The notes: a model not told the origin generated them from the letters alone. A stretch of DNA of 64,000 nt from a virus (IMGVR_UViG_3300032246_001270), one strand, 5' to 3'; positions 1-62,735 are shown, counted from the stretch's first letter. Numbers and translations are program-made.

Positions 1-417
1 TAATCTTTCTTTTATTTTATATAAACTTTTGTTAGTTCTTTTATAGTAATCTTCTTTCTTAAGTCCGTTTTCAGTCTTTAATTTAGAATACCAATTAACA
101 AATTTTTCAACTTCGGTTAATTGATTATGAATACTTGTAATACCTCTACTTATTTTAGCTTTTGGAGAACCATCTTCTTTTTTAAGTGCTAACCAACGAT
201 TTTCTTTTAAAGTCTTTTCTTCATCATCTTTAGCTAATACCATACCACTAACATCAGCTAATGCACCATCATCTTTTGTATCAGCTGCAGTTGGTTTCAT
301 TTCTAAAGGTTTTTTAGAATTTGCAGGAACATCGTTTTTTAACCAATCTTTTGCTTCTTCTAATTGAATTTCTTTAATTATTTCTCTAATAGTATTTTTC
401 AACTTAATATTATCCAT
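1..417 (-). CDS. Hypothetical protein, truncated by the window edge (head-module neighbour)
   Basis: Not in the ORF track. ATG at 417 overlaps the stop of 410..1285; reads MDNIKLKNTIREIIKEIQLEEAKDW... and stays open to position 1. Confidence 0.75.
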   Translation of the reverse strand, partial: MDNIKLKNTIREIIKEIQLEEAKDWLKNDVPANSKKPLEMKPTAADTKDDGALADVSGMVLAKDDEEKTLKENRWLALKKEDGSPKAKISRGITSIHNQLTEVEKFVNWYSKLKTENGLKKEDYYKRTNKSLYKIKERL

Positions 418-1352: not shown

Positions 1353-3134
1353 TTAAAATTTGGTGTCATCTAACAGGTTATTTTCATCTAAAAGGTCAGT
1401 TTTTTTTGTTTTTTCACTTAAAATCTTCTTTTTTGATGAAATCCCATTAATATATTCTTGTGCTAATTTTCTTTTTGATTCGTTTGTACGAGTTTCCCTT
1501 TTCCTCTCACCTTCATTTTCTTTATTCCCCAATGGGTCTCTACCTAACGGATGTTTATCTTTTCCGTATGTGTTTCCTTCTCTTGGTCTACCACCTTTAT
1601 CATTATCATTTATCTCCTGCTTCATTTTTTCAATCTCCTCCTCAACATTAGTTTGTTGTGGTGGATTTGCCGGGTCTTGTCCTTGCTGTTCTATTGAGTT
1701 ATAACGGAATCTATCTTTAAGGTCTAATACCATCTTAGCTCTTTCAGTATCCATTTCCTCCTCACTCATACCAAACACATTATGAAATACCCAATCACTA
1801 GATAACATATTTAATTGTTTTAAATCGCCGGCCAATCTTGTCTTTTCACTCCATAGATTTACTTTCTCTTGCTCATATATTGTAGAAGCGTTAGTTAAAG
1901 TAAGTTGAAAATTTGTCATTTCAGAATCATCTATTCCATGAGCTGCCAAATGAACAATAGCTATTTTATATAATTCACTAACAACTGTTCTTTGAATTCT
2001 TTCAATAGTTCTAGCAAAACGAACATCCTGTGCTGCAAGTGTTGCTTTACCACTTACATCTTCTTCATATCCTAAAAACGCTTTTGGAATTTTTAAAGCT
2101 GCAAATAATTTAGCTTTTAAATAATCAATATCTTCTATTGCTGCATATTCCAATCCTGCTAAATTTTCAATTGATGTACCACTATCTCCACCTCTAACAG
2201 GTAAAAAGAAATCTTCAGTAAGGTTTTGAATATTATATTTTAAATTATAATCTCCAGTATCTTTATTAACAAATGGAGTTTTTTTCATTTTGTTAATAAT
2301 TTTTTGCATATAGTTATCAACTTCTTGAGGGTTGATATTACCAATATCTATTTTGAATACTCTTTTTTCAGGTGCTCTCATAATACGATGAATTAACATC
2401 GCATCTTCCATCAATTGTAATTGTTTCCAAACTCTACGCCCACCTTCAATCATTGCTTTACCATACGGAAGGAAGTTAGTATCTGATAATAAACGGAAGT
2501 GAGCCATTTCATAGTTCTCATATTCTTTTTTACCAAATCTATCTAATTCAACTTTAAACTTAACATAATTTTGATTATTAGGGTCAGTACCTTCTAACCT
2601 TTCTGTGTTATATACAGAATATGGTATTACATTTATAATACCTTTGCCCTCTGCTATTTCTAATGCTAAAAAGAAATCTCCATATTTAACTAAATTTCTA
2701 ACCCAAGGCCATAAATTAAATTCTACATTTATTATATCGTAAAAAAGATTATGAAGTAATGAACTTACATTTTCATTTGTTGATTTAATTGTAAGAATAT
2801 CACCATATTCATTTTTAGTTGTAGATTCATCCGAATATATATCTAATGCAGATGCTATAATTGGGTCATTATCCATAGCATCGTAATCTCTAAATAACTC
2901 TCTACGAACCTGATGGTATGCCATAGATTGTGCACCCTGATTGGTTTCGTAATAAGACCTTTGTAACTTTGTATATCTATCTCTTAGATTTACAAAATTT
3001 GTATTCATTTGTCTATCATCTGTATCTACAACCTTACGCTTACCATCTTTATCAACGGTTACGATTGCGCTGGTTGAGAACAATTTCTTTAATCTACCAA
3101 AAAAACTTCTACCTTCCATTTCTTGCTCTGCCAT
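1353..3134 (-). CDS. Portal protein, T4 gp20-like
   Basis: Motifs MDNDPIIASALDIYSDE, KQLQLMEDAMLIHRIMRAPEKRVFKIDIGN, EDFFLPVRGGDSGTSIENLAG and KLFAALKIP; adjacent to the terminase. Confidence 0.93.
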   Translation of the reverse strand: MAEQEMEGRSFFGRLKKLFSTSAIVTVDKDGKRKVVDTDDRQMNTNFVNLRDRYTKLQRSYYETNQGAQSMAYHQVRRELFRDYDAMDNDPIIASALDIYSDESTTKNEYGDILTIKSTNENVSSLLHNLFYDIINVEFNLWPWVRNLVKYGDFFLALEIAEGKGIINVIPYSVYNTERLEGTDPNNQNYVKFKVELDRFGKKEYENYEMAHFRLLSDTNFLPYGKAMIEGGRRVWKQLQLMEDAMLIHRIMRAPEKRVFKIDIGNINPQEVDNYMQKIINKMKKTPFVNKDTGDYNLKYNIQNLTEDFFLPVRGGDSGTSIENLAGLEYAAIEDIDYLKAKLFAALKIPKAFLGYEEDVSGKATLAAQDVRFARTIERIQRTVVSELYKIAIVHLAAHGIDDSEMTNFQLTLTNASTIYEQEKVNLWSEKTRLAGDLKQLNMLSSDWVFHNVFGMSEEEMDTERAKMVLDLKDRFRYNSIEQQGQDPANPPQQTNVEEEIEKMKQEINDNDKGGRPREGNTYGKDKHPLGRDPLGNKENEGERKRETRTNESKRKLAQEYINGISSKKKILSEKTKKTDLLDENNLLDDTKF

Positions 3135-5537: not shown

Positions 5538-8500
5538 TTATTTATCGAAGAAAATTCCTAAAATTTGATTTAGGGGTGCGAATGCACCTGTTAATTTGTA
5601 AGTATTACCACTATATACAAATACAATACCCTCATTTGGTACAATTTTATCAAACCCACCCAAAGCTTTAAGCCTCTCTAACTCTAATTTTAATTTTGCA
5701 ATCTTCTTAGGGTCACCACTTGCTTTTACCTGTGATATTGTTGATTCCAAACGAGCTACCATTTGTTTTCTAGCAGAAGATGGATTTGCTGTAAGTACTG
5801 ATTCGGTAAATGCTAATACATCTGCACCAACTCCTAAAAATATCTCCTCAAATTTCATAAGATTATCTTTAGATATTTTTTGTTGGTCTTTTTTATCAGT
5901 TTGCTCAGCCCATCCTCTTATTTTATCATCTTGTATTTCTGCTATACGGAAACTCTTGTCACCAAAAGCCCATCTTTTAATTAATCCTATTTTTTGTTGT
6001 GCATCTAATTTCTTTGCACCTTTATTTACAAAATTAGACCACCATGCTTGGTGATAATCAGCCACACCATCACTATCAGAAAGATTAAATTCTTTTTGAA
6101 GTTTATTAATCATTGAAATATACTTTCCTTGCTTTTTAGAAAGGTCTTCTGATTTAGGAAGTGATTGCATTGGAGGTCCCTGAATTGTGTATTGGGATTG
6201 AACATGCTGATTTACTTGCTTAATCATTCCTGCTAATATTTTAGCTGCTTGTTGATTTTCTCCAACAATTGTACCATCAGTATCATATTCAAATGTACCA
6301 TGAAATACCAATAGTGGTTGATTATATGGAATTACATTTACCGATGTCGGATATATTACTTCTAAATTCATAAAGCAAGAACCATCTTTGAATATCTTTT
6401 TTCTTTGTTCTTCACTTAATGCCGCAATAGCTGCTGAAAGGTCTTTCATTGCGTAGTTGTATGCATCTGTAAGTCCACCTCTACCAGCAAACTTATCCGC
6501 CACCTGTCCTATTGTCATAGCACCCTCACCTTTATTCTTTAAATGTGATTTGTTACGAGCTGCAACTAATCTACCATTTACCCAACTAACTGCTAATGCT
6601 TGACCATCAGTCTTCTCTCTTGCTAATTCTAAATCACCATTTAATGCTCTTACTACAATTTGTTTTAAATCACCAAAAGTAAGATTCATTTCAATATCAA
6701 ATGGATGATTCATATGTCCATACGCTCCACCTTCGTTAATATTTTCTTTTTGTAATTTTTGAATTTCTTTATTTAATTTATCAATTTCTGCTCTAACTTT
6801 CATTTGTGCCGGTGATTGTGGCATCATTTTTAAAGCTTTAATGAATAAAACCATTCTTTGCTTTTCCAAATCTTTTAAAGAACTTTCATTAACTGGATTT
6901 CTTAATTTTACACTTTTAGCAATATGTCTTTCCTCATCTTTAATAGTATCACCATCTATATCAATAGTTGGGTCCATATTAATTCTTTCATCTTTGCCAG
7001 GTTGATTATCATATTGATTAGGATATGCATCAGTTGTACCAGCCGTACTCTTACCATCGCCCTTTATAAAATCAGATGGTAATTTATATCCGTATTTTAA
7101 CGTACGATTATATTTGTGTACACTATCATCATGATTATCTATTGGAAGTTTTGATTGATTTTTTAATCTTTTTAATTCATGCTCTGATGGTATTTTATGA
7201 TAAGTTCCCCATCCAGGTAAATCTTTTGTATAATATCCTGCTATATCATAGTCCTCCCATCCTTTATTCCAAGCATATCCAGTTGTTGAATTACCATCAT
7301 TACCCATATCATTACCACTATATTCTAATAAACTTTCGTTTTTAATTTTTGATAACTTTTCGTAGTAATGTAAATCTTCCCATAAATGGTCCATAGCTAT
7401 TTCAGCTGCAATACTAACATCCGTTGTGTGTTCCATTTCAACTTTAATACCAGCCACCAATCTAGGTTTAATATATTCTTTTGCAAATTGTTTTGGGTCA
7501 TAATATTCTTTAACATCCCACTTCTTAGCTAAATCAATTAAAGTTTTACCTTTTGCTAACCCACCAGGTATTCTATCTTTCTGTACTGCTATCTCATCAA
7601 CTTGCTCATATCCACTCATTCCTTTGTTGTTAAGTTTTTTACTATTTTTTTTAACATCTTTAGAATCAGGTGCTCCATTAATATATCCACCCGGTAAACT
7701 TAAACCTATACCAGCTCCTCCGGGAAATCCCATTTCATCTAATAGTTCATCAAAATCAGAAACTATTTCTTTAATATCTTCTTTTGAAATTATTGTATCG
7801 TTTTCTTTATCAGATAATTCCCAAAATCTTTTAGCTTTTTTAATTGGTTTTTTTTCTTTAATCTCTTGCCAATCTTCCGTAGTATGTGGGTCTTTAGCAG
7901 GGTCTAAATTTGTATTAGCTACATTAGATACATTATATGTAGCTTGACGTAGCATCATTCCCTTTTCGTTATCTTTTTTATTTTTACCTTGAACCCAATC
8001 TGCTTTTGGAATATGTAATTGTGTATATCCACCATTTTTAAACCAAAATTCAGGTTTATGTTTATTTAATATTCTTTTATCACCTGCATTTAAATGTGAA
8101 GTTGATGGTTCTCCAGCTTCTCCATCAAACCCACCCAAAGCAGTTTCCTTTAAATTTTCTTTTTTAGGTATTCTAAATGTTACAGCTTTTTTACCATTAA
8201 TTGTTGGCATTCCCCATTCATCCTCACCAATTGATTTAACAACTACTTTTTTGTTTTTAAATTTTCCCATCAACAAAGTATCACCAACTTTTACGTTTAA
8301 TTTAATTTCTTCGTTAATACATTCTTTTAATCCCTTTAATTTAAGAGTAATTAATTTGAATATTTGAGAGTCAAACTTTGGATATGCTTTTGTAAAATTT
8401 TTCTTTCTATCAGCTTCACTACCAGCACTTAACCAATAACGAACATCAGTACCACTAATAGGATTTGATTGTGCCGGCGAAGCGTAAACATACCCTTTAT

Positions 8501-8924
8501 CTAAATACCCCTGCTCTACTTTACCTTTATATGGTGTAAAGTACTTACCACTTAATCTATTTTGGTCCTTCTCACCAACCACAACTATTAAACCAGTTGT
8601 GTTGGAATCATATTTTTTAAGTATTTCCTCAGGAGCATATGGATTTTTGATATTAACAATTTTAGATGATGGTATTCCAAACATCTGCATCATTATTGCT
8701 TTTTTTTCCTTAAAATTAAATGGAGATTTTTTTGAATCGGTAACATTAGAAGTTCCGATATAAACACTATCCTTACCGAATTTGCGTACTAAATTATCAT
8801 AAGTTGCAAAGTGGCCCTTATGAAAAGGTTGAAAGCGGCCTGAATAAACAACTATCACATTGTCTATCGAAGCCGCTTTCTCCAATAATATTGATTCCAC
8901 TAAAAATTTTGTCAATCCTTTCAT
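5538..8924 (-). CDS. Multidomain protein: N-terminal HIGH-family nucleotidyltransferase, central small domains, C-terminal RNA-ligase-like nucleotidyltransferase
   Basis: YSGRFQPFHKGH and ISGTDVR (HIGH/SxT motifs); central GIKVEMEHT...IAMDHLWEDLHYYEKL; C-terminal EKTDG, NLEVI, LVFH, EGIVF and YKL matching ligase motifs I, III, IIIa, IV and V. Confidence 0.75.
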   Translation of the reverse strand: MKGLTKFLVESILLEKAASIDNVIVVYSGRFQPFHKGHFATYDNLVRKFGKDSVYIGTSNVTDSKKSPFNFKEKKAIMMQMFGIPSSKIVNIKNPYAPEEILKKYDSNTTGLIVVVGEKDQNRLSGKYFTPYKGKVEQGYLDKGYVYASPAQSNPISGTDVRYWLSAGSEADRKKNFTKAYPKFDSQIFKLITLKLKGLKECINEEIKLNVKVGDTLLMGKFKNKKVVVKSIGEDEWGMPTINGKKAVTFRIPKKENLKETALGGFDGEAGEPSTSHLNAGDKRILNKHKPEFWFKNGGYTQLHIPKADWVQGKNKKDNEKGMMLRQATYNVSNVANTNLDPAKDPHTTEDWQEIKEKKPIKKAKRFWELSDKENDTIISKEDIKEIVSDFDELLDEMGFPGGAGIGLSLPGGYINGAPDSKDVKKNSKKLNNKGMSGYEQVDEIAVQKDRIPGGLAKGKTLIDLAKKWDVKEYYDPKQFAKEYIKPRLVAGIKVEMEHTTDVSIAAEIAMDHLWEDLHYYEKLSKIKNESLLEYSGNDMGNDGNSTTGYAWNKGWEDYDIAGYYTKDLPGWGTYHKIPSEHELKRLKNQSKLPIDNHDDSVHKYNRTLKYGYKLPSDFIKGDGKSTAGTTDAYPNQYDNQPGKDERINMDPTIDIDGDTIKDEERHIAKSVKLRNPVNESSLKDLEKQRMVLFIKALKMMPQSPAQMKVRAEIDKLNKEIQKLQKENINEGGAYGHMNHPFDIEMNLTFGDLKQIVVRALNGDLELAREKTDGQALAVSWVNGRLVAARNKSHLKNKGEGAMTIGQVADKFAGRGGLTDAYNYAMKDLSAAIAALSEEQRKKIFKDGSCFMNLEVIYPTSVNVIPYNQPLLVFHGTFEYDTDGTIVGENQQAAKILAGMIKQVNQHVQSQYTIQGPPMQSLPKSEDLSKKQGKYISMINKLQKEFNLSDSDGVADYHQAWWSNFVNKGAKKLDAQQKIGLIKRWAFGDKSFRIAEIQDDKIRGWAEQTDKKDQQKISKDNLMKFEEIFLGVGADVLAFTESVLTANPSSARKQMVARLESTISQVKASGDPKKIAKLKLELERLKALGGFDKIVPNEGIVFVYSGNTYKLTGAFAPLNQILGIFFDK

Positions 8925-44778: not shown

Positions 44779-45171
44779 TTATTTCATTTTCTTTTTTAAT
44801 TCTTCTAATTCAAATTCTAAATCATCAACCCTTTCAACTTCTTGTTTAGTTTCATCTAAATCTTTAAGTAATTGTTCTTTCTCAAACGCAGATAAGAATC
44901 CTTCTTGTCCTTCCGTTTTCTTTTCAGATGCTATAATCTTAGTTGCTATTGTTGCTAATTTAACCAATTGGTCATCGTTCTTAACTGAGCTATCGATTAA
45001 TCCACCAATTACAGGACCCAAAGTTCCCATATCACCAGCGTGTCTAACCATTTTCTTTAGTTCTTCTATTAAAGCACTAATCTTTTGTTTTTTAGAAACT
45101 TGGTTGTTATAGATATCCTCAAAAAGACCACTTAATGATTTACCTTTAAATAATTCGAATTCTGTTGACAT
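44779..45171 (-). CDS. Helical hypothetical protein heading the baseplate-hub operon
   Basis: 130-aa coiled-coil ORF; late motif at 45198-45205. Confidence 0.55.
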   Translation of the reverse strand: MSTEFELFKGKSLSGLFEDIYNNQVSKKQKISALIEELKKMVRHAGDMGTLGPVIGGLIDSSVKNDDQLVKLATIATKIIASEKKTEGQEGFLSAFEKEQLLKDLDETKQEVERVDDLEFELEELKKKMK

Positions 45172-45221
45172 ATTAATATATTTACATTTTGTATGTATAT
45201 AAATATGGTTCTTAAAAAATG

Positions 45222-46043
45222 TTAGGAATTAATTTCCTTTACTCGGATTTGTATTTTGGGAGAATATCCCTTTGGTAGTTCGTTTCTTACACCTTCAAAT
45301 GATTCTACTTCGTTTGAAAAATATTCTATTTCAAGTATTTTATCGGTAAGATTCATTATAGTCTGAGAGGATGTAAACATAGTAGAAGTAGTTCTTCTCA
45401 TATTTAATTGAGATTCTTTTTTATAGAATTGCTTTCTCATTGCAGCTCCTATTTGAGTCCAATCAGTTACTTTTTCAACTGTTTTTTCAGCTGATATCTT
45501 TCTCATTTTAGAACTAAGATATTTTACTCCAGATGTGTATCCTGCATCGGTAAATGTGTGTCCGTGATTTGTTCTTACAGTTAAATCTTCTTGGTTATGC
45601 AATTTAATATCAGGTTTATGTTTGGATGTAGCCTCAATACTAATCATATTTTTTGGAGATGATATAAATGTATGTCCTTTTAATGCTAACTTACTATCAC
45701 CCTTAAATGTAAGTGCTGATTTAAGTGCTTCTTTTAAATTCTTTTGTTTGATAATATTTCTCATCTTTTGTCCATCAGGACCTGGCTTTCCAACTTTTTT
45801 AACTAATTTCTTTTCAGCCTCATCAGCTCCAACTAATAGTGCAGCGTTTACTACTCCTATTCCAAACTCATTCATACCCTCACTCCAATCGGTAATCATA
45901 TCATGTAAGTATGCAACTTCCACACCATCTAAAATGGTATGTACTACTTCTAATTTAGGTTTGTAAGCTCTATCTCTATTCTTAGCTAGGATAAACTTAT
46001 CATTAACCTCTTTAGATACGATTATGCACTCTGAAAGTTTCAT
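45222..46043 (-). CDS. Ntn-hydrolase (C45/choloylglycine hydrolase/NRDE-like) with a 5-residue leader before the Cys nucleophile
   Basis: MKLSE-CIIV...ILAKNRDR, EGMNEFGI and RTNH. Confidence 0.75.
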   Translation of the reverse strand: MKLSECIIVSKEVNDKFILAKNRDRAYKPKLEVVHTILDGVEVAYLHDMITDWSEGMNEFGIGVVNAALLVGADEAEKKLVKKVGKPGPDGQKMRNIIKQKNLKEALKSALTFKGDSKLALKGHTFISSPKNMISIEATSKHKPDIKLHNQEDLTVRTNHGHTFTDAGYTSGVKYLSSKMRKISAEKTVEKVTDWTQIGAAMRKQFYKKESQLNMRRTTSTMFTSSQTIMNLTDKILEIEYFSNEVESFEGVRNELPKGYSPKIQIRVKEINS

Positions 46044-46316
46044 TTAGAATCCTATTGAAATTACATCACCATCTGCTTCAACCCAACGAATTTTTAATGC
46101 TAATAATTTTTTAAGAGTATCAGCTCCAAAACGATAACCACTTCCAAAATTACCTTTTGCTGGAATATCCACAACCATTCCGTGAATACCAGCAAAAATT
46201 TGAGAATGGTCTGCACCAATTACTTTTTGGAATGCTACAACCTGTTTTTGTTGAATGGGTTTTAATTCTTTGAATTTTACTTCAGATGCTTCGTTTAGTT
46301 GAGTAAGTTTTATCAT
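46044..46316 (-). CDS. Small protein with MIKL..LNE leader (putative internal head protein)
   Basis: Starts MIKLTQLNE-A. Confidence 0.6.
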   Translation of the reverse strand: MIKLTQLNEASEVKFKELKPIQQKQVVAFQKVIGADHSQIFAGIHGMVVDIPAKGNFGSGYRFGADTLKKLLALKIRWVEADGDVISIGF

Positions 46317-46317
46317 T

Positions 46318-46956
46318 TTATTTCTTTAATTTAATTTTCCAATAAACACCACCTCTAACATATGGAGTGAATCCACCATTTGTACCATCTGTTGTTTTGT
46401 TATTAACACCTAAACCTAATTGTAATATCTTATCTTTTTTAGTATTGATTAAAACTCCCATACCTACTGAACTTACAAAATCTGCTTTGTTGAATCCACC
46501 CTCTAAACCATAGAATACTTTAGTTTTAGGTAATTCTTTAACAATTGTAGTATTATTAATTACTCTTTGCTTAACATTAGCAGTAAAATTTCTACCTTCA
46601 ATTTTGTTTTTAGTAATTGTATCAGTTAAAAATACAAATCCTAAACTATCAGGCAAATGCAATGTATCTTTGTATATATTTTTTGCAAAGTAATCTCTTA
46701 GTAATGCTGCTGTATCTACATTTATTAACTTAATTGCGGTATCATGTAAGATAGTTTCATGGAAGATATCTTGTCCTTTTTTCCAAAGTGTTTTTACTTT
46801 TGTTACTTCGGTAGTATCATGTATCTCTTTAATAACTTCATATTTCTTACCATCAACCATCATTGTTTTACCAACTCCATTACTTTTACCAAAGTAAAAC
46901 TGAATTGCTACACAAGCAATAAGAACTAATATGGCAATATTTTTTAAATTTTTCAT
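46318..46956 (-). CDS. Membrane-anchored periplasmic protein with C-terminal amphipathic beta strands (spanin-like candidate)
   Basis: N-terminal hydrophobic segment; ends YVRGGVYWKIKLKK; six D-(S/T)-(T/A/L/I) motifs. Confidence 0.5.
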   Translation of the reverse strand: MKNLKNIAILVLIACVAIQFYFGKSNGVGKTMMVDGKKYEVIKEIHDTTEVTKVKTLWKKGQDIFHETILHDTAIKLINVDTAALLRDYFAKNIYKDTLHLPDSLGFVFLTDTITKNKIEGRNFTANVKQRVINNTTIVKELPKTKVFYGLEGGFNKADFVSSVGMGVLINTKKDKILQLGLGVNNKTTDGTNGGFTPYVRGGVYWKIKLKK

Positions 46957-46970
46957 AATATATTATTTTT

Positions 46971-47465
46971 TTAATTTATTTCGTGATTATCATCGTTACT
47001 CAAATACTTAAATTGCTTTTGCATACCATTCCAATAATTATCATCATCAGGATTTTCATGTTTATTAAAAATGTTTATTTTATTTAACAATCCTTTTAAT
47101 CCTTTTTCATCTTTACTTTTTTGATAGTCCGCTTTTAATTTATCATATTCTTTCTTTCTATCTTTATAAAAATCATCCATATCATGTTGATATCCTTTAA
47201 GTCCATTTTTAGTAGCTAATGCCATAGCTGCTTTTCTAGCAGGATGTGTCATTGGATATCCAAAAGCTGTTTTTACCGATATTTCATTTCCAGTTTCAGG
47301 ATTTTTTACTTTTAATTTTTCAAACTTATCTCTTAACTCTTTATTCTTTTTTGCTAATGCTAACCTTTTTTGTTTTTGTGCAGTAGTTTCTCTACGTTTG
47401 GGTGAGCTAAGAACAGGTACAAAAATAAATTCGTTTAATAAAGATTTTAATTTGATATCTGCCAT
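46971..47465 (-). CDS. Basic protein with IKL..LLNE leader (putative internal head protein)
   Basis: Starts MADIKLKSLLNE; contains KVKNPETG; late motif at 47484-47491. Confidence 0.55.
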   Translation of the reverse strand: MADIKLKSLLNEFIFVPVLSSPKRRETTAQKQKRLALAKKNKELRDKFEKLKVKNPETGNEISVKTAFGYPMTHPARKAAMALATKNGLKGYQHDMDDFYKDRKKEYDKLKADYQKSKDEKGLKGLLNKINIFNKHENPDDDNYWNGMQKQFKYLSNDDNHEIN

Positions 47466-47501
47466 TTTTTTCTATTTTATGTGTATAAATATTGTATTAT
47501 C

Positions 47502-49067
47502 TTAAAATATCATTTTTGACCCAATTTGGATATTATTCAATAGGGAAAAACTATCACCAAAGGACATTGCCGCTTTATAAGATGCTGAAAATCCAAATCT
47601 TTTACTTAATTTGTAATCATATCCCAACCCTACCATTGCTCCCGGTATTCTACTTACAGTACTTCCACCAGTCACCGTATTCCAAGCTAATGGAGATTGC
47701 ATTACAAATACTTGCGGAGTTAGGGTTACCTTTCTACTATAAGGGAATGGTTTCATCCAAAATCCTACTAAAGATGAACTTAAACTTACATCATATCCAC
47801 CTGTTGTTGCGTTTTGCATCATTAAAGTAATCACACCAACATTATATCCGAATGTTCCATATTTAGGGTGAGGTTTAATCCAAGTGTATCCGTTAAGGTT
47901 CATTAGAGTTCCTTTAAGATATGCAAATGTAGTTCCGTATGAATGTATTGCGTTTAATTGTCCGTTCTCAAAATCCATCTTTGTAATACCACCACTTAGT
48001 GCAAATTGGTTTAGGGTACTCCAAATAAGTGCGGTAGCTGAATATGATTTATCTCCCATCAATGAAGAACGAGATACACCCACACTCATCATTACAGCGT
48101 ATTTACCTTCCGCATCTTCCGTACCAGCCAAATCAGATGCTAACATCATTGGATTAGCTGCTACTTTCTTTTTTTCCTCTTTTTTCTTTTCTTCCTTCTT
48201 ATCCTCTTTTTTTTCTTCTTTAGACTCTTCTTTTTTTTCGTCCTTCTTCTCCTCTTTGGTTTCCTCTTTCTTTTCTTCTTTTTTACTTTCCGATTTAGTT
48301 TCCTCTTTCTTTTCTTCAGTCTTACTTTCCGATTTACTTTCAGATTTAGTTTCTGATTTTGTTTCGGTTTTAGTCTCCGTTTTAGTTTCAGTCTTTGTTT
48401 CCGTAGATGAGCTAGATGATGAAGATGAACTACTACCAGAACTGCTTCCAGAACCTCCAGAAGCACTGCTTCCTGATGATGCCGGCGGTGGAGCGGATGA
48501 ACTACTGCTTGGTGGTGGTGGAGGGGCTGATGCCGTTGGTGGTGGGGCAGTTGGTGGTGGTGGAATTGCTCCCGTTGCTGCTCCACTAGCTGCAGAACTT
48601 ACTGCTCCACTAGCTGCCGATGAAGCTGCTGAACTAGCCGCTCCACTTGCTGCTCCACTAGCCGCAGAACTAGCAGCTCCACTTGCTGCTTTTGCTGCTG
48701 CATCTGCTACTGCCTTTGCTGCTGCATCTGCTGCTGCTTGTGCCGCTGCAGCTGCTGCCGCTGCTGCCGCTTGTGATACTGTGTTTTGTACAGTTTGTTG
48801 AACTACGGTATTTGTAGGACAAGCCATAGTTGAATAAGCTGCATAAGTTGCGGATATCCAAACTTGAACTGCACCAGCCATTACTTCGGTTGGTGAGAAT
48901 ACTCTTATTTGATTGTAGAATGATACCGTTGCAAACCCATTAGTCATAGTTGTAGTGGCTACTTTAATTTCACCAGTACACTTATCCTTAAATGTTTGTG
49001 TATATGTTTGCCCCATTACTATTTGACAAAACAATACTAAAACAAATCCTAATATGTATTTTTTCAT
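47502..49067 (-). CDS. Secreted protein with long low-complexity linker and C-terminal outer-membrane beta-barrel
   Basis: Signal peptide ending VMG-Q; poly-Ala, SSAASGAA, poly-Pro, Ser/Gly, TETK and KKEE tracts; alternating beta strands; terminal Phe. Confidence 0.7.
   Translation of the reverse strand: MKKYILGFVLVLFCQIVMGQTYTQTFKDKCTGEIKVATTTMTNGFATVSFYNQIRVFSPTEVMAGAVQVWISATYAAYSTMACPTNTVVQQTVQNTVSQAAAAAAAAAAQAAADAAAKAVADAAAKAASGAASSAASGAASGAASSAASSAASGAVSSAASGAATGAIPPPPTAPPPTASAPPPPPSSSSSAPPPASSGSSASGGSGSSSGSSSSSSSSSSTETKTETKTETKTETKSETKSESKSESKTEEKKEETKSESKKEEKKEETKEEKKDEKKEESKEEKKEDKKEEKKKEEKKKVAANPMMLASDLAGTEDAEGKYAVMMSVGVSRSSLMGDKSYSATALIWSTLNQFALSGGITKMDFENGQLNAIHSYGTTFAYLKGTLMNLNGYTWIKPHPKYGTFGYNVGVITLMMQNATTGGYDVSLSSSLVGFWMKPFPYSRKVTLTPQVFVMQSPLAWNTVTGGSTVSRIPGAMVGLGYDYKLSKRFGFSASYKAAMSFGDSFSLLNNIQIGSKMIF
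48160..48775 (-). repeat. Low-complexity coding repeats (Ala, SGAA, Pro, Ser, TETK, KKEE)
   Basis: Visible in DNA (gctgct, gctccact, ggtggt, ttcttc runs) and in the protein. Confidence 0.9.
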
Positions 49068-49915
49068 TAAAAATTATTCAGCCCAATACCCAATTGCGAA
49101 TAACCTCTTATTGGGTCAGTATCAAATTTCAAAGTAAAAAATTTGAAATCTCTTAATATACCAACCTTAAATGTTGTAAAATATGCTTTTGATTTTGGAA
49201 ATGAAATACCACCTAAATCATCTTTACCTTGATATCTAATTTCTTCATGTCCAAATCCAATCATTCCGTGTACACCTAATTTATCAAACCTTTTACCACC
49301 ACCCAAATATAATGTATGTTCTTTTCTGAAATCAGTTTTACTAAGTGGAAAATCTACCATAGCTAAATTACCATAAGGAAAATATTGATTTCTATCTATT
49401 TCATAAGTCATTACATAATCCATAATAAAATATCCTTTAGTTCCACCAATTGTTCCCCAAAAGTTAGCTTGTTGATTATTTGTTTTACCTAATCCAGCTT
49501 GAACTAATAAAGGAGTACTTTGAATTGTATCTTTCTTTCCATTTTCGTATATATGAACTACATCTCTATGTCTCCATCCGTAGTTATCATACCAAATATA
49601 AGGATAAGGTGCGTACCAACCCCAAGTTCCATAATATAAACCATAAGGATTACTTATTGTAGGTCTATATCTTCTTACTAATGGTTGTTCGGGAAATGAT
49701 TGACCTGGTCTGATTGGTTCGGTTTGTGTTCTCCAACTACTAACATTATTTTGTTGTTGTGGATATGATTGTTGTACTCTAGGAGCTTCCACTCTTTGTT
49801 GAGGAGGATTTGTTCTCCAGCTACTAATTTGAGCTGATGCTACAATAATAGTTCCAAATAGGAATGCTAGGAATAAAGCACATGCTAATATTACCTTTCT
49901 TATTTCTTTTGTCAT
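49067..49915 (-). CDS. Secreted outer-membrane beta-barrel-like protein
   Basis: Signal peptide ending ASA-Q; duplicated SSWRT; Tyr/Trp-rich linker; beta strands ending QLGIGLNNF. Confidence 0.65.
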   Translation of the reverse strand: MTKEIRKVILACALFLAFLFGTIIVASAQISSWRTNPPQQRVEAPRVQQSYPQQQNNVSSWRTQTEPIRPGQSFPEQPLVRRYRPTISNPYGLYYGTWGWYAPYPYIWYDNYGWRHRDVVHIYENGKKDTIQSTPLLVQAGLGKTNNQQANFWGTIGGTKGYFIMDYVMTYEIDRNQYFPYGNLAMVDFPLSKTDFRKEHTLYLGGGKRFDKLGVHGMIGFGHEEIRYQGKDDLGGISFPKSKAYFTTFKVGILRDFKFFTLKFDTDPIRGYSQLGIGLNNF

Positions 49916-49919
49916 AGTT

Positions 49920-50663
49920 TTATCTTTGGTATAAATATAACTCTCCGTTATAATCTACCAAAATGGCACTCATATTCTCAATCCAATCCCCACTATTAAG
50001 ATATCTTTCTCCATTAATCATCATATCCGCCGGTTGGTGAATATGTCCGCAAATCACCCCAGAACACCCTTTTTTGTGGGCCATTGATAAGGCAGTGGTT
50101 TCAAAATCGTTTATATAATTTGTTGCGGCTTTAACACTTCCTTTAATCTTTTGTGATATAGATATATAAGGTAACTTTCTCCAAGTTCTATATCGGTTAT
50201 ACCAACGATTAAGCCATAATGCAAAATCATATCCAATTGAACCTATCTTTGATAACCATTTATATTTGGTTATAAAAACATCCACAACATCTCCGTGGAA
50301 AATGTAATAGCTCTGATTCCTATATACATCATCTTCCACCCAAGTTTTTGTATTAAGTACATAATCTTCTTTAATTTCAATGTGTCCAAAATTTGTGCCG
50401 ATAAACTCTTGTATAAATTCGTCATGGTTTCCTCTTATCCAAATTATTTGTGTTTTGTTAGATAACTTTAATATTTTAGAAATAACTTTAGTGTGTTTCT
50501 TTTTCCACTTAGCCCCTCTATTCAAAGCCCACCCATCAATTATATCTCCATTAAGAATAAGGAGGTCGGTTGGGTGTTTGTCTAAAAATTCTATAAACTC
50601 ATCCGCTTTACTATCTTTAATTCCTAAATGTAAATCTGATGCTATGATAGCTTGATATCTCAT
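49920..50663 (-). CDS. LpxH-like (UDP-2,3-diacylglucosamine diphosphatase family) metallophosphoesterase
   Basis: SDLHLG, NGDIIDGW, GNHD, HGD, CGHIH and YLNSGDW. Confidence 0.8.
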   Translation of the reverse strand: MRYQAIIASDLHLGIKDSKADEFIEFLDKHPTDLLILNGDIIDGWALNRGAKWKKKHTKVISKILKLSNKTQIIWIRGNHDEFIQEFIGTNFGHIEIKEDYVLNTKTWVEDDVYRNQSYYIFHGDVVDVFITKYKWLSKIGSIGYDFALWLNRWYNRYRTWRKLPYISISQKIKGSVKAATNYINDFETTALSMAHKKGCSGVICGHIHQPADMMINGERYLNSGDWIENMSAILVDYNGELYLYQR

Positions 50664-50950
50664 TTTTTAAATAATTTTTTCCAAATTTTATTTCTAGGAT
50701 TACCAAATTGCATTCCTAAATATTTTCCCAAAACTGAACCTATTATGTAAAATATTATAATTCTAAAATTTCCCTTCAATAAATCATCTATTGCAAAATA
50801 AGTAGATGCTAATGAAACTAAATTTATCCAAACTGAATTTAATAAAAGTGCTCCTACTTTATTTTGGTATGTATATTTTATTTCTAATACTTTAAAAATA
50901 TTATACATTGTTTGTGCGAATAATACTATAACTTCTTTCATTAAGACCAA
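50660..50950 (-). CDS. Small multi-pass membrane protein
   Basis: Three hydrophobic segments; YIIGSVLGKYLG. Confidence 0.6.
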   Translation of the reverse strand: MVLMKEVIVLFAQTMYNIFKVLEIKYTYQNKVGALLLNSVWINLVSLASTYFAIDDLLKGNFRIIIFYIIGSVLGKYLGMQFGNPRNKIWKKLFKK

Positions 50951-51657
50951 TAGTTATGATGATGTTTAAAAAATTGTGGATTGTTTCTATTTAAATAACT
51001 TTTTATCATTATTTGTATCATCCACCAAATACCTTTATTTTTAAATCTACGAGCACTTGTCCAAGCTCCATAGAATCTATAAATCATAAATTTGTTTGCG
51101 GATATCTTTGATGAAATTGAATAATCTTCTGCAAATAATTCATCTTCTATATACCCACCCACTTCCCAATATGCTTTTGTTTTAAAGAATTGAAATCCAC
51201 CAATTGCAAAAGGAGTACCGATTACATAACTTATCCATTGAGAAAGGTCAAACAGGCGAAAGGCCCAATTCCATCCCTTTTCGGTTTTGAATGGTACAGT
51301 CAGTAAATCGGTATCGTAAGCCAATGCCATTTCATAACAATTAACTAATGTTCTATCATTTGCTAACATTATATCGGCATCTAAAAATAAGATGTATGGC
51401 GTTTTTGCTAATTTACTTCCTTCTAAACGGCCTTTAGCTGGAAATCCTCCATCTATTACTTCAATATCTAATTTATATTTGAAATCCGCTTGTGCTTTCC
51501 ATAACCACCAAAAAGATTCTTCCTCATCGGAAACATCTGCTATTATTACTTTGGTATCATTTATAAATTGTTGTTTGGCAATTAATCCAATACAATCATA
51601 AATGTTAATTCCTTCGTTTTTACAAGGTATTACTATCGTTATTTGTTTACTTAACAT
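50941..51657 (-). CDS. GT2 family glycosyltransferase
   Basis: IVIPCKNE, LFLDAD, GGY.E...AEDY and TSARRF. Confidence 0.88.
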   Translation of the reverse strand: MLSKQITIVIPCKNEGINIYDCIGLIAKQQFINDTKVIIADVSDEEESFWWLWKAQADFKYKLDIEVIDGGFPAKGRLEGSKLAKTPYILFLDADIMLANDRTLVNCYEMALAYDTDLLTVPFKTEKGWNWAFRLFDLSQWISYVIGTPFAIGGFQFFKTKAYWEVGGYIEDELFAEDYSISSKISANKFMIYRFYGAWTSARRFKNKGIWWMIQIMIKSYLNRNNPQFFKHHHNYWS

Positions 51658-51670
51658 ATGAGTATAAATA

Positions 51671-51699
51671 AAAAACCTTCAGTTGATTATGAAGGTTTT
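51671..51699 (-). terminator. Intrinsic terminator
   Basis: Inverted repeat aaaaccttca / tgaaggtttt with a minus-strand T tract. Confidence 0.75.
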
Positions 51700-51718
51700 A
51701 ATATTATCAAATTATTAA

Positions 51719-52054
51719 TTACTTTGTTTTTATAATCAATTCACCCAATACCTCAATTTTACCAACTAATTCCTGAAATTCTATTTGTTCCATATTAGTT
51801 GCTTCAGGCATCGAACACAATTGTCCCATTAGTTTTTTGTATTCCATTTTAACCATTTTCATATCCAACTGTCCATCTTTTGCTTTCTTGTAGTATGGAA
51901 GTTTTACTTTGAAATGATGGTAAGTCAAAAGAGCCGGCCCACCTTTCTCTTTTGCATCGTTAGTGATTTTAGTAGCACCATCCAATCTCTTACCAGCAAA
52001 AGTTTCTAAATCTCCACTAACTTCTTCTTTTAATATATTACTTAACTTTATCAT
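51719..52054 (-). CDS. Small protein with MIKL..ILKE leader (putative internal head protein)
   Basis: Start reassigned to ATG 52054 (MIKLSNILKE-E), 1 nt after the upstream stop. Confidence 0.6.
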   Translation of the reverse strand: MIKLSNILKEEVSGDLETFAGKRLDGATKITNDAKEKGGPALLTYHHFKVKLPYYKKAKDGQLDMKMVKMEYKKLMGQLCSMPEATNMEQIEFQELVGKIEVLGELIIKTK

Positions 52055-52055
52055 A

Positions 52056-52535
52056 TTATTTACAGGTTTTCCAACCACCACCTTTTGATTTGTAATTTTT
52101 TGCAGCCCAGCCATTTGCATATGCTGATGGATATACATCAAACTTACTTTTTGCTGCTGCTTTAGATGCTGACCATTTTTCTGGGTCTGTTGGACAATTT
52201 CTTTCTAAAAATAATCCCATTGCTTCTTCAATTACCTCATGTTTCTTTTTACCGGCACAATGTGCTTTTTGTGAGAATCCTTTTGGATTAGAACAATTGA
52301 TAGATTTTTTATATTTTGCACTCCAAGTTTCATTCATAGAACCTAATCCACATCTTTCTAAAAATTCATCAGTATTTACTTCAATATTTTCTTTTTTAAA
52401 ATCTCTAAGTCTATCTAATGCCATTTGTTTACGATTATCAATATCCTTAACTTGGTTAAGCATATCAACAATACCATCAACCATTTCTTTTTGATGTGGT
52501 TGTTCTTCTTTTAATAAATTACTTAAATATATCAT
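52056..52535 (-). CDS. Mosaic of small basic domains with MIYL..LLKE leader
   Basis: MIYLSNLLKE; WSAKYKKSINCSNPKGFSQKAHC; KFDVYPSAYANGW...KGGGW. Confidence 0.6.
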   Translation of the reverse strand: MIYLSNLLKEEQPHQKEMVDGIVDMLNQVKDIDNRKQMALDRLRDFKKENIEVNTDEFLERCGLGSMNETWSAKYKKSINCSNPKGFSQKAHCAGKKKHEVIEEAMGLFLERNCPTDPEKWSASKAAAKSKFDVYPSAYANGWAAKNYKSKGGGWKTCK

Positions 52536-52981
52536 TATGCTCCTGTTTTTACAAATGTTGGTTTCTGTCCTTTACTTTGTTCACCACCTTTTTTACTATC
52601 ACCTGCTTTGGATTGTGCACTTCTTTTTCTTTTTACAAATGCTGCTCTACCATCAGGTCCTAACTTTGCTGCTTTCTCTTTTGATAAACAAGCTGCGTAT
52701 GCTGAGCCTGATTTACTATCTCCACATTTACCTACTTTTTTTCCTTTACTATCATATCTATCCCAACCACCACCACTACTTGAACCTTCACCACCTTTAC
52801 CAAACCATTTACGAAGGTCTTCTTTAATTGGTGTATTATCATTTCCGCATTTATGGCAAAGATATGGATTTGTTTCACCACCATCATAACCATCAGATAT
52901 ATCCCAATGCCAGCCACACTTATCGCATGTAACTACACCATCTTTAAAAATTTCGTTTAATATATCGGTAAGCTTTATCAT
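52535..52981 (-). CDS. Mosaic protein (Zn ribbon + basic domain) with MIKL..ILNE leader
   Basis: Start reassigned to ATG 52981 (MIKLTDILNE); CDKCG...CHKCG; EDLRKWFG...CG...ACL. Confidence 0.6.
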   Translation of the reverse strand: MIKLTDILNEIFKDGVVTCDKCGWHWDISDGYDGGETNPYLCHKCGNDNTPIKEDLRKWFGKGGEGSSSGGGWDRYDSKGKKVGKCGDSKSGSAYAACLSKEKAAKLGPDGRAAFVKRKRSAQSKAGDSKKGGEQSKGQKPTFVKTGA

Positions 52982-52982
52982 A

Positions 52983-53492
52983 TTACCACTTTCTACAACT
53001 CCAATAGTTTGCTTTTGTTCTTGGACCCGGATTATCACAATTCATTCTTGCTCTAAAAGATTTTCTAGCTGCAGGATTTGATTTTCTGATTTTCATTCCT
53101 TTCTGTCCGAAGTTTACTTTAATGATTTTACCAGTCTTAGGATTCTTTACATATACCTTAAACTTCTTAACATCACCTTGCATTGGTTTACCTAACTTTA
53201 CTTCTCTACCTTGATATTCTGCTTCGTAAACACAATTACAATTTGCTTCTTCTAATTGAGTTGAATAACCTTTTAAGAAGTTTATGAAATCATCCATATC
53301 TTCTTGCTCAACATCCAATTCATCATAATCATCAATTGGATTATCGGTTGGAGTATCACCAAGTTTGTAAGCTTGGTCTACATAAGCATCTTCGTTTTTA
53401 GGCTTAATGCCTTTTTTCTTCATATTGATTGCAATTGCAGCCTGTCGTGCTGCATTTGCTGCTTCATTTAATAAGTTATTTAATTTTATCAT
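52983..53492 (-). CDS. Mosaic protein with MIKL..LLNE leader
   Basis: MIKLNNLLNE; EAEYQGREVKLGKP; KVNFGQ...RKSFRARMNC...ANYWSC. Confidence 0.6.
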   Translation of the reverse strand: MIKLNNLLNEAANAARQAAIAINMKKKGIKPKNEDAYVDQAYKLGDTPTDNPIDDYDELDVEQEDMDDFINFLKGYSTQLEEANCNCVYEAEYQGREVKLGKPMQGDVKKFKVYVKNPKTGKIIKVNFGQKGMKIRKSNPAARKSFRARMNCDNPGPRTKANYWSCRKW

Positions 53493-53598
53493 TTGCCAAT
53501 CTATTTAATATTTCTTGATTTTGCTTTATTAATTCTGCAGTCTTAACTCCAGACTTAACGCTTCTCATTGCTCTTTTCTTTTTAGGTTTTGTTCCCAT
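53476..53598 (-). CDS. Small basic peptide (40 aa)
   Basis: MGTKPKKKRAMRSVKSG...NDKIK*; fills the gap between the CsgG-like gene and 53492. Confidence 0.5.
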   Translation of the reverse strand: MGTKPKKKRAMRSVKSGVKTAELIKQNQEILNRLANDKIK

Positions 53599-53599
53599 A

Positions 53600-54322
53600 T
53601 TATTTAGCGAATACGCCCTTTTTAATCATTTTATCTAATATATTTGCACATGCTATATCTAATGCTTTTTTAGTTGAAATACTAATAGTTGATTGGTTAA
53701 ATTTAATTGGGTCTATTGAAGCATCTGAAACTAATGTTAATTGTCTATTTGTTTTAGCTTCACCCAAACCAGATGCTGCTATGATAGTTCCATTCTCTGC
53801 ATTTGTAAAACGTACCTGTAAACCTAAACGAGTTACTAAGTTATCTTTGATACCATCCTTTAAATTAATAGTTTCATCTTCGGATACTGAATAATCATAT
53901 ACTTCAATTTCAACAAAGTAATGTGCTAACTTAATCTTTCCTCTACCATCTAATTTGTTTTCGGAAATACCAGCTTGTGATGCTTGATATTGTTTTACCA
54001 TTCTATTTTTAATCTCAGTCTTATCTTCGGTAAATTCAAATCTGTTAAGGTTGTCCAAATATTCTAATACGATATTTGCAACACCCAATCCAACTCTCTT
54101 TTCTTTTAGTTCAGGATACATTTCATATACCTCATCACCAATACCACATTTTAGGATTTGAATATTCTTTTTAGGACCTTCATAATCCATATATTGAGAG
54201 ATATCTTTTTTCTTTTCAAAATCAGCCTTAAACTCCTCAGTCTTAGTGCTTCCTATTGTTTGAGCAACAACCACAGTGCTGCTTAATAAAAAGAAACTTA
54301 ATAATAATAATAAATTTTTCAT
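53600..54322 (-). CDS. CsgG/HfaB-family secreted protein
   Basis: Signal peptide; L..LNRFEFTED, GKIKLAHYFV.IEVYDY and LQVRFTNAENGTII match the CsgG-type alpha/beta pattern. Confidence 0.7.
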   Translation of the reverse strand: MKNLLLLLSFFLLSSTVVVAQTIGSTKTEEFKADFEKKKDISQYMDYEGPKKNIQILKCGIGDEVYEMYPELKEKRVGLGVANIVLEYLDNLNRFEFTEDKTEIKNRMVKQYQASQAGISENKLDGRGKIKLAHYFVEIEVYDYSVSEDETINLKDGIKDNLVTRLGLQVRFTNAENGTIIAASGLGEAKTNRQLTLVSDASIDPIKFNQSTISISTKKALDIACANILDKMIKKGVFAK

Positions 54323-54350
54323 ATATTTTTTTCATTTCCTATATAAATAT

Positions 54351-54380
54351 AAAAAAAGGGGAAAACTATGTTCTCCCCTT
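54351..54380 (-). terminator. Intrinsic terminator
   Basis: Minus strand AAGGGGAGAAC-ATA-GTTTTCCCCTT-TTTTT. Confidence 0.8.
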
Positions 54381-61680: not shown

Positions 61681-61911
61681 TTAAGCTTCTCCAATTTGAT
61701 TTGAATAAAATCCTTTACTTAAAAAATCTACGGAAGCTTCTTCTTTAGCTTTGTTAATTTCATCATTTACCCATTCCATTTTAGAAACAAATCGGGCATC
61801 AAGTTTTTCTTCCTTTACCTTTTTTGTTTCAATTAATTCATCGACTAGAGCTTCTACTAACATTTGTAATACTAATATTCTTTCATTTTGTTTTTGTAAT
61901 AATTCTTTCAT
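61681..61911 (-). CDS. Hypothetical protein
   Basis: 76-aa ORF overlapping the upstream gene by ATGA. Confidence 0.55.
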   Translation of the reverse strand: MKELLQKQNERILVLQMLVEALVDELIETKKVKEEKLDARFVSKMEWVNDEINKAKEEASVDFLSKGFYSNQIGEA

Positions 61912-62153
61912 GCTAATTGGATTGAGCCGGAGTAGGCGTTTTCAAATATTGAATTTAATTCTTGTTCTACATTTCTAAGATATTCCTGTCCAAATGCTTT
62001 CTTTACCGATAACGATGTATATCCCATAGCTCCTGCCATTCGAATACACATTCTTTTGTATTCCCAAACATCCATATCGTTTGGTACTTCAAATTCTATT
62101 TTAGAGGCTTCTCTATTTTCTTGTTCTTCAATGATAAATATTAATTTTGCCAT
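61908..62153 (-). CDS. Hypothetical protein
   Basis: 81-aa ORF; IEFEVPNDM...MAGAMGY. Confidence 0.55.
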   Translation of the reverse strand: MAKLIFIIEEQENREASKIEFEVPNDMDVWEYKRMCIRMAGAMGYTSLSVKKAFGQEYLRNVEQELNSIFENAYSGSIQLA

Positions 62154-62162
62154 TTGTTAAAA

Positions 62163-62735
62163 TTAAATTAAGTTCCATCCTTTTTCTAGGTAAGAATCAA
62201 CCTTTTTACTTTTTACAAATTCCATTTCACCAGCTGGTCCTTGCAACATAACTCTTTCGTTTCTACCTGGCTCTTTATCCTTTATAACAGTTTCAGAATA
62301 TTGACGAGTTATATGTGTGATATCTATACCATTTATTGCATCAATTAATCTTTGTACTAATACAGCTTCTAATAATCCTTTATCTCCAAAAAATTCATCA
62401 GAATCTTTCCAGTCATTTTTTTCTGCTTTAAATTCAACTCTACCTAAATTATCGGTAGTTATTATTACATATGGATATCTGATAGTTTTACGAACTTTAT
62501 TTTTGTTTGTATCTTTTTCAAAATAAACTAAAGGTTGTTCTGATGTTTTTTCTATTACAGGATTTACTAATGTTAGTTCATCATCTACATTACCTAATCT
62601 AATTGTTACAATTCTTTTATCAATATTTACATCAGCTGCTGTAAACATAAATCCTTCCAATTTAGATATAGCTTCTTTATATGCACTTATATCTTCTGCT
62701 GTTATTGGTGATTCATTAATTTTTTCTACTTTCAT
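62163..62735 (-). CDS. Degenerate peptide deformylase homologue
   Basis: AADVNIDKRIV, LVNPVI, KTIRY and EAVLVQRLIDAING, but no HExxH or EGCLS. Confidence 0.7.
   Translation of the reverse strand: MKVEKINESPITAEDISAYKEAISKLEGFMFTAADVNIDKRIVTIRLGNVDDELTLVNPVIEKTSEQPLVYFEKDTNKNKVRKTIRYPYVIITTDNLGRVEFKAEKNDWKDSDEFFGDKGLLEAVLVQRLIDAINGIDITHITRQYSETVIKDKEPGRNERVMLQGPAGEMEFVKSKKVDSYLEKGWNLI

Follow-up and report, generated by a model that had tools for sequence, protein, structure and literature searches.

The N-terminal tag and the genes that carry it

The stretch of DNA analysed here, called the window below, comprises 64,000 nucleotides (nt) of the virus IMGVR_UViG_3300032246_001270. Its G+C content is 30%, and the minus strand carries 61 of its 63 called genes. 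Several genes in the region 45222-53492 encode proteins that begin with a common short peptide. In its strict form, M-I-(K/Y)-L-x-x-(L/I)-L-x-E, this decapeptide (the tag) opens four tandem and tightly packed genes, which start at 53492, 52981, 52535 and 52054. In an earlier analysis of the sequence alone (the sequence-only reading) these and further N-termini had been quoted, and it was verified that all of them are present at the minus-strand starts given there. The genes with the tag or with variants of it are the following (aa, amino acids):

52983..53492, minus strand: tagged gene 1, 169 aa, tag MIKLNNLLNE encoded at 53463-53492; phrog_7595
52535..52981, minus strand: tagged gene 2, 148 aa, tag MIKLTDILNE encoded at 52952-52981
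52056..52535, minus strand: tagged gene 3, 159 aa, tag MIYLSNLLKE encoded at 52506-52535; phrog_27331
51719..52054, minus strand: tagged gene 4, 111 aa, tag MIKLSNILKE encoded at 52025-52054
46971..47465, minus strand: tagged gene 47465, 164 aa, variant MADIKLKSLLNE, two residues longer, encoded at 47430-47465
46044..46316, minus strand: small gene, 90 aa, nine-residue variant MIKLTQLNE (46290-46316), one residue short
5538..8924, minus strand: multidomain protein, 1128 aa, with a cytidylyltransferase-like domain and DUF5661

Longer open reading frames (ORFs) with GTG or TTG starts enclose the ATGs at 52981 and 52054; as only 0-2 nt separate each of these ATGs from the stop codon of the gene before it, they are likely to be the true starts. 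Pfam and PHROGs were nearly blank for the tagged proteins of the window. In tagged gene 1 the tag is followed by an acidic spacer and then, from residue 91 and directly behind V-Y-E, by a basic module. Most tblastn matches of this gene in other phages start at residues 88-91, and two records of Roseobacter phages annotate the basic module as an HVA1 family protein. Tagged gene 2 is built from the tag, a Cys4 zinc-ribbon-like module, I-K-E and a module with the sequence DLRKWFGKG, which in the relative G001 stands directly behind the tag. The mature part of tagged gene 3 is basic, with an isoelectric point (pI) of 9.0. The pI values of the cargo (8.6-9.6) were not counted as evidence in this Lys-rich proteome.

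For quantification, a wider register, M-x-x-hydrophobic-x-x-hydrophobic-hydrophobic-x-E, and the core of the tag, I-[KRY]-L-x-x-[LI]-L-x-E, were used. The register was found at six of 64 N-termini of the window, compared with 0.16 expected from the window's own proteins (binomial P ~2e-8). The sixth match is the 1128-aa protein that starts at 8924, the N-terminus of which, MKGLTKFLVE-SILLE (8895-8924), fits the ten-residue register and is conserved in relatives. The core did not occur a single time inside the 20,795 residues of window proteins. The scores of a position matrix formed two peaks, with 22-26 bits for the strict tags (n=4) and at most 5.6 for everything else, including gene 46316 with its weak score of 5.6. 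The similarity ends at the Glu, in agreement with the sequence-only reading: BLASTP revealed no similarity among the mature parts (best E 0.099). A remnant of a tandem duplication, or a chance product of a composition rich in Ile, Lys, Leu, Asn and Glu, would be compatible with the adjacency of the four tagged genes and with a genome of about 30% G+C; but the binomial P value, the lack of internal copies of the core, the lack of residual similarity past the Glu and the presence of the same tag on at least 64 cargo clusters of other phages leave hardly any room for this explanation. An 81-aa ORF at 61908-62153 (MAKLIFIIEE) also fits the loose register of the tag; it lies among early-type genes and may do so by chance.

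The DNA 5′ of each ATG belongs to the end of the gene before it and lacks conservation, and the codons differ between the copies of the tag (CTT or TTA for Leu4, AAA or AAG for Lys3). Both observations indicate that selection acts on the peptide, and they also ruled out a DNA repeat. Conservation at the level of the nucleic acid, with the first 30 nt serving as an enhancer of translation initiation or as a homology arm for the swapping of cassettes, would suit the tight tandem packing, the highly exchangeable cargo and the A/T-rich codons. It is very improbable nonetheless, since synonymous codons differ and the upstream DNA is unrelated, Leu8 and Glu10 are kept as amino acids, abundant virion genes lack the tag, and only 2-5 genes per genome carry it.

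The tagged genes seem to be organized in late-type operons. The nonamer ATATTTATA occurs 12 times in the window. Every copy is on the coding strand and precedes a gene start by 15-71 nt; among the genes concerned are tagged gene 47465, gene 54322, the portal-adjacent gene and genes for the tail and the baseplate. The elements around the tagged genes are:

54356-54380: second hairpin, which precedes the ATATTTATA box of the tandem operon
54342..54350, minus strand: ATATTTATA box, 20-28 nt upstream of gene 54322, the head of the tandem tagged operon
53600..54322, minus strand: first gene of the operon, 240 aa, hydrophobic signal-peptide-like N-terminus, no tag
51672..51699, minus strand: terminator-like hairpin, which closes the tandem operon
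47484..47492, minus strand: ATATTTATA box, 19-27 nt upstream of tagged gene 47465

The unit headed by gene 54322 thus runs through all four tandem tagged genes and is enclosed by two terminator-like hairpins. Gene 47465 heads a second late-type unit, which continues through 46956, 46316 and 46043, and the baseplate module is located directly downstream of the tagged region. A different motif, (A)GTTGTATATTTGTATA with a Bacteroidota-type TAnnTTTG element, was found upstream of 25602, 61621 and 12761, i.e., in front of three non-virion genes, one of them the primase gene. As this motif differs from the ATATTTATA box of virion genes, the two may represent early and late promoter classes, respectively.

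Occurrence of the tag and its cargo in other phages

The IMG/VR database was scanned with a degenerate DNA pattern of the tag, and at least 140 matches in at least 120 stretches were retrieved. Among the 140 matches listed, 134 form the start of an ORF with a length of 40 aa or more, and 131 are situated within 30 codons of an upstream stop, a placement at ORF starts that chance matches in A/T-rich DNA would not give. After removal of the tag, the proteins of at least 60 aa (131 among the matches listed) fell into at least 64 cargo clusters. Eight larger related records contained 25 strict tags, 2-5 in each, all of them on the coding strand and many in tandem, while a backward control pattern yielded no match in the same eight records. 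Leu8 and Glu10 were present in every strict tag, position 4 was Leu or Phe, and position 7 was Leu, Ile, Phe or Met. Positions 4, 7, 8 and 10, together with 2 and 3, are thus conserved, and positions 5, 6 and 9 are variable.

The largest cargo cluster among the matches listed is Zeta_toxin/AAA_33. Pfam recognised only few of the clusters, the others being an RNase_T exonuclease, DUF5872 and DUF6934. In addition, the complete genome G018 encodes a tagged ADP-ribosyltransferase of the ART-PolyVal type. T4 Alt is an ADP-ribosyltransferase that is packaged and injected (PMC5512222), and the enzyme of G018 is a parallel to it. With this enzyme and the Zeta-toxin-like cluster, the cargo resembles injected effectors. 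Polyvalent or virion-packaged effectors, such as the Dar proteins of P1 and the virion RNA polymerase of N4, have been predicted to be injected (Iyer et al. 2017, PMC5512222). The tagged cargo shares with them ART-PolyVal and Zeta-like kinase domains that are encoded beside virion genes. However, polyvalent proteins are mostly large fusions with peptidase domains of their own, whereas the proteins described here are mostly small and single and have a short tag in common.

The prohead protease and the resemblance to the T4 capsid targeting sequence

The type of phage could be deduced from the following genes of the window:

1..417, minus strand: head-module gene, truncated at the window edge, with the longer leader MDNIKLKNTIREIIKE of the head-core type
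410-1285: portal-adjacent protein, 80-90% identity with IMG/VR relatives
1353..3134, minus strand: portal of the T4 gp20 type (PF07230, E 2.6e-65)
3206-4801: large terminase, 58% identical to the terminase of Flavobacterium phage immuto
38213-43546: baseplate wedge and hub genes

The terminase is more distantly related to those of T4-like cyanophages and of Rhodothermus phage RM378. The T4 gp20-type portal, the terminase and the baseplate genes assign the window to a T4-like myovirus that is distant from T4. The nearest cultured relatives are phages of Flavobacterium and Chryseobacterium, and a megablast search with positions 45000-54000 of the window against cultured phages gave no match. Two looser versions of the tag had been proposed at 8924 and 417; the former (MKGLTKFLVE) fits the register, while the gene at 417 has the head-core type leader listed above.

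A search for a gp21-like protease had been proposed as a check, and such a protease was found in relatives, next to the portal. Past the left edge of the window the relatives encode small head-module proteins, a protease of the Peptidase_S77 family, i.e., the family of T4 gp21 (PF03420, E 2.9e-26), a scaffold-like protein and the gp23 capsid protein. The counterpart of gene 1..417 lies between the portal-adjacent gene and this protease. In relatives with 88-90% identity in the portal-adjacent protein, the protease is located about 1.1 kb and gp23 about 6 kb downstream of the gene for this protein; in the closest relative the protease gene starts 1070 nt after it, so that it is expected about 0.7 kb beyond base 1 of the window. 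PF03420 was detected in 10 of 18 searchable tag-bearing records, including all three complete genomes. Of the other eight, two are fragments with gp23 or a T4 portal at the end of the contig, and six are fragments with an estimated completeness of 2-28%. The protease was also found inside 21 of the at least 120 short loci fetched around a tag. The protease of the relatives itself begins MKSLLIE, and T4 gp21 likewise has a motif-conforming L-I-E near its own N-terminus (PMC9026906).

The capsid targeting sequence of T4 is MKTYQEFIAE (PMC8442874), and mutational work has assigned targeting mainly to its residues 4 and 7 and processing to residues 8 and 10 (PMC9026906). The tag has the same hydrophobic positions 4, 7 and 8 and the same Glu10. 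As in T4, it would be a ten-residue N-terminal propeptide common to unrelated and mostly basic proteins, it occurs together with a portal, protease and capsid gene set of the T4 type, few genes per genome carry it and these form variable clusters, and an ADP-ribosyltransferase belongs to the cargo. The differences are the consensus MIKLxxLLxE, the larger and more varied cargo (at least 64 clusters, including Zeta-toxin-like kinases and nucleases), and the phages themselves, which are distant from T4, uncultured and of about 30% G+C. The sequence-only reading had postulated a different targeting code. This part had to be abandoned, because the tag keeps the T4 register at positions 4, 7, 8 and 10 and appears to be a clade-specific consensus of the same layout. 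Intermediate forms were found in cultured T4-like phages, namely MKKFKQYIDE in C48C1, MIPFILKE in Pelagibacter phage HTVC008M and MRLLELLRE in immuto, where it opens the orthologue of tagged gene 4.

The comparison was extended to other known systems. In the giant phages phiKZ, 201phi2-1 and SPN3US a protease related to gp21 cleaves head proteins behind a Glu, the propeptides have been inferred to target proteins into the prohead, and paralogues have conserved N-termini (PMC5694885). Glu-directed cutting of an N-terminal propeptide by a gp21-type protease is also predicted for the tagged proteins. However, the propeptides of the ejection proteins of giant phages are mostly longer than 100 residues and have the cut motif A/S/G-x-E, whereas the tag has a constant length of ten residues and Leu, Ile or Val at P3. 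A signal peptide for Sec or lipoprotein export was rejected, as the tag has ten residues, is charged at positions 3 and 10 and contains no hydrophobic run or core. None of the six tag strings appeared in a paper of the literature searched, the coverage of which is incomplete, and no link of the T4 signal to such phages was found in it.

Taking the register and the gene context together, the decapeptide M-I-(K/R/Y)-L-x-x-(L/I)-L-x-E is probably this clade's version of the T4 capsid targeting sequence, i.e., a propeptide for targeting and cleavage. The tagged proteins would be made late in infection, together with the virion proteins. The short amphipathic N-terminus, with its hydrophobic residues 4, 7 and 8, would dock the cargo on the scaffolding core of the prohead, and the prohead protease of the gp21 family (Peptidase_S77) would cut after Glu10, with position 8 as P3 and position 10 as P1. 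The mature basic cargo would then stay in the head and probably exit with the DNA at the next infection. The proposal of T4-style targeting and cleavage of unrelated cargo, which was already part of the sequence-only reading, is supported by the co-occurrence of the protease, by the late-type operons and by the conserved hydrophobic-x-Glu junction described below, while docking or packaging, cleavage, retention in the head and ejection are steps that we infer.

It was also considered that the tag might be a handle for another partner, for example a membrane, a phage chaperonin, a degradation system or an assembly such as the baseplate, with no connection to the head. A short amphipathic peptide could serve such a role, some of the cargo looks cytoplasmic and enzymatic, and in the window the tagged genes adjoin baseplate and envelope-related genes and not the head module. 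Nevertheless, this explanation is unlikely: the tag lacks a hydrophobic core of the signal-peptide type, its end corresponds exactly to the cut motif of the co-occurring protease, tagged genes lie beside the protease in other genomes, and its register is identical to that of the T4 signal, the function of which is proven.

A Cys-Ntn hydrolase with a putative bare cut site

Next to the small gene 46044..46316, the following gene was identified:

45222..46043, minus strand: Cys-Ntn (N-terminal nucleophile) hydrolase, 273 aa, propeptide MKLSE (46029-46043), with L-S-E directly before the invariant Cys6

An AlphaFold2 model of the product (predicted template modelling score, pTM, 0.78) had a four-layer alpha-beta-beta-alpha fold. 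Foldseek matched it to 3gvz, bile salt hydrolases, penicillin V acylases and isopenicillin N acyltransferase with E values from 8e-7 to 1e-4, and according to this model the product is a Cys-Ntn hydrolase. The CBAH, Peptidase_C45 and C69 models did not match it, and Pfam gave only a sub-threshold DUF5662. In this fold an active chain has to begin with the nucleophilic Cys. MKLSE had been regarded as an instance of the tag; instead, it appears to be a mere hydrophobic-x-Glu cut site, which is followed directly by the catalytic Cys. In 80 close homologues the propeptide comprises 3-12 residues and is hypervariable, but it always ends with [L/I/V]-x-E before the invariant Cys, or the protein starts with M-C. 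Distant homologues were represented by 150 clusters at 50% identity (P0121-P0270). The Cys is kept in 141 of them; 16 of these start with M-C, and the others have a cut-site signature immediately in front of the Cys. Among the 141, Glu occupies P1 in 50 and Leu, Ile, Val or Met occupies P3 in 50. Some of the hydrophobic-x-Glu junctions are located 80-430 residues inside fusion proteins.

The same protease rule could thus operate without the tag: the propeptide of the Ntn hydrolase would be removed at the hydrophobic-x-Glu site and the Cys would be exposed. As the cut site stands directly before a Cys that needs to be N-terminal, maturation of the head would also switch the enzyme on, which suggests that capsid maturation can activate packaged enzymes. 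The module borders after I-K-E in gene 52981 and after V-Y-E in gene 53492 agree with this cut rule as well. In the bare site of the hydrolase positions 2-4 and 7 vary freely, while they are conserved in the tag; this points to a role of the tag that goes beyond being cut, most obviously targeting.

This comparison bears on the possibility that the tag is a removable propeptide only, with which the head protease or another Glu-specific protease unmasks or activates a protein without any targeting to the capsid. The bare site of 3-5 residues that suffices in the Ntn hydrolase family and the internal hydrophobic-x-Glu sites at the module borders of tagged proteins speak in its favour. Yet cutting needs only positions 8 and 10, and positions 2, 3, 4 and 7 are equally conserved across at least 64 cargo clusters. 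T4 gp21 acts inside the prohead, and any substrate would therefore have to reach the prohead anyway. Residues 4 and 7 are, moreover, the targeting residues of T4 (PMC9026906), so that cleavage as the sole role is improbable.

Several points weigh against the tag being a capsid targeting propeptide. The consensus from IMG/VR was partly imposed by the search pattern, which fixed M1, I2, K3, L8 and E10, the only residues that 64 tagged proteins of other phages have in common. Residue 11, which follows Glu10, is often Ile, Val or Glu, and immuto, the closest cultured relative, has only one strict tag, MIKLIDLLTE at 24569, and otherwise looser variants such as MRLLELLRE at 112261. The protease is known from relatives, as the window ends about 0.7 kb short of its expected position. 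Ntn hydrolases of this fold can remove short propeptides themselves, and thus a junction at the Cys is no proof of cutting by another protease. Last, an equal frequency of the motif in replication and metabolic genes had been named as counterevidence by the sequence-only reading. None of the genes of this kind recognised in the window is tagged (an SbcCD-like nuclease, primase, thymidylate synthase, a deformylase-like protein and several transferases), but elsewhere a P-loop kinase, an NT5C-type nucleotidase, a DnaQ-like exonuclease and a ligase-like protein are among the cargo families with the appearance of ordinary enzymes, and such cargo might work in the producing cell and not be packaged.

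Self-processing is known for this fold. Penicillin V acylase, bile salt hydrolase and isopenicillin N acyltransferase process themselves or lose only the Met. The phage family shares with them the fold and an N-terminal Cys nucleophile that needs exposure, but unlike them it keeps a protease-type signature at P3 and P1 in two discrete classes. A second class of junctions is found before the catalytic Cys: out of 125 clusters, 73 have Ala, Ser or Gly at P1 and 74 have Lys or Arg at P3. Many of these K/R-x-A/S/G junctions are situated inside proteins of 1000-2800 aa. A lipoprotein box was ruled out for the [K/R]-x-A|C junctions by the basic P3 and by the lack of a preceding signal sequence. The second class may reflect a different specificity of the head protease in another phage lineage, and two discrete signatures fit cutting by lineage-specific proteases better than self-processing.

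Two further cases bear on the cut rule. A ligase-like family of the relatives L094, L102, L154 and L189 has the conserved mature start GGAYGHM(N/A)HPFD, preceded by variable N-termini that end with hydrophobic-x-E (SLIME, SILLE, EVIQE) or consist of just M-E, and it seems to behave as a second case of the Ntn hydrolase type. Chryseobacterium phage MA9V-1 (L314, 152544-154676 of the record), a cultured myovirus of 213 kb, encodes an Ntn hydrolase with the junction ...FLNE|C, and the adjoining genes start with MSNYINE|A and MKGFFINE|A. The MA9V-1 paper, the protein data of which are from SDS-PAGE, annotates a prohead core serine protease; no proteome was found for any of the tagged phages. In many relatives the gene directly upstream of the Ntn hydrolase is that of the 8924 protein, which has an N-terminal NMNAT-like cytidylyltransferase domain and could be a packaged enzyme related to nicotinamide adenine dinucleotide (NAD).

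If the tag works like the T4 signal, a string of ten residues would reveal, from sequence alone, which proteins are carried into the next cell, and it could be read in thousands of uncultured freshwater and marine T4-like phages. Candidates for early effectors and for counter-defence proteins, mostly from unknown families, could then be listed directly, and the tag itself would offer a candidate means of bringing foreign proteins into the capsids of phages that do not belong to the T-even group. The type of signal is already known from T4, and the unusually large set of cargo sets the present case apart. The junction of the Ntn hydrolase would be a rare read-out of head protease specificity that needs only sequences. 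It is tempting to speculate further that the tag marks a large exchangeable set of dozens of families, such as Zeta-toxin-like kinases, ADP-ribosyltransferases, nucleases and the NMNAT-like protein, that is loaded into the heads of environmental T4-like phages and injected, that the head protease activates a packaged Ntn hydrolase by exposing its Cys, and that a second lineage uses the [K/R]-x-[A/S/G] junction for the same domain; as a whole, this wider scenario is possible but doubtful.

The remaining observations concern neighbouring and other genes of the window. The adjoining genes 47502-49067 and 49067-49915 both have signal-peptide-like N-termini, and the protein encoded by the former (521 aa) contains a long low-complexity region of Ala/Ser/Pro and Lys/Glu/Thr. 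Apart from a sub-threshold PepSY_TM for the second, neither product matched a family; both look like phage-borne envelope proteins. In addition, a SegE-like GIY-YIG endonuclease is encoded at 25858-26268 (E 4e-27), and a peptide deformylase-like gene is located at 62163-62735 (E 7e-7).

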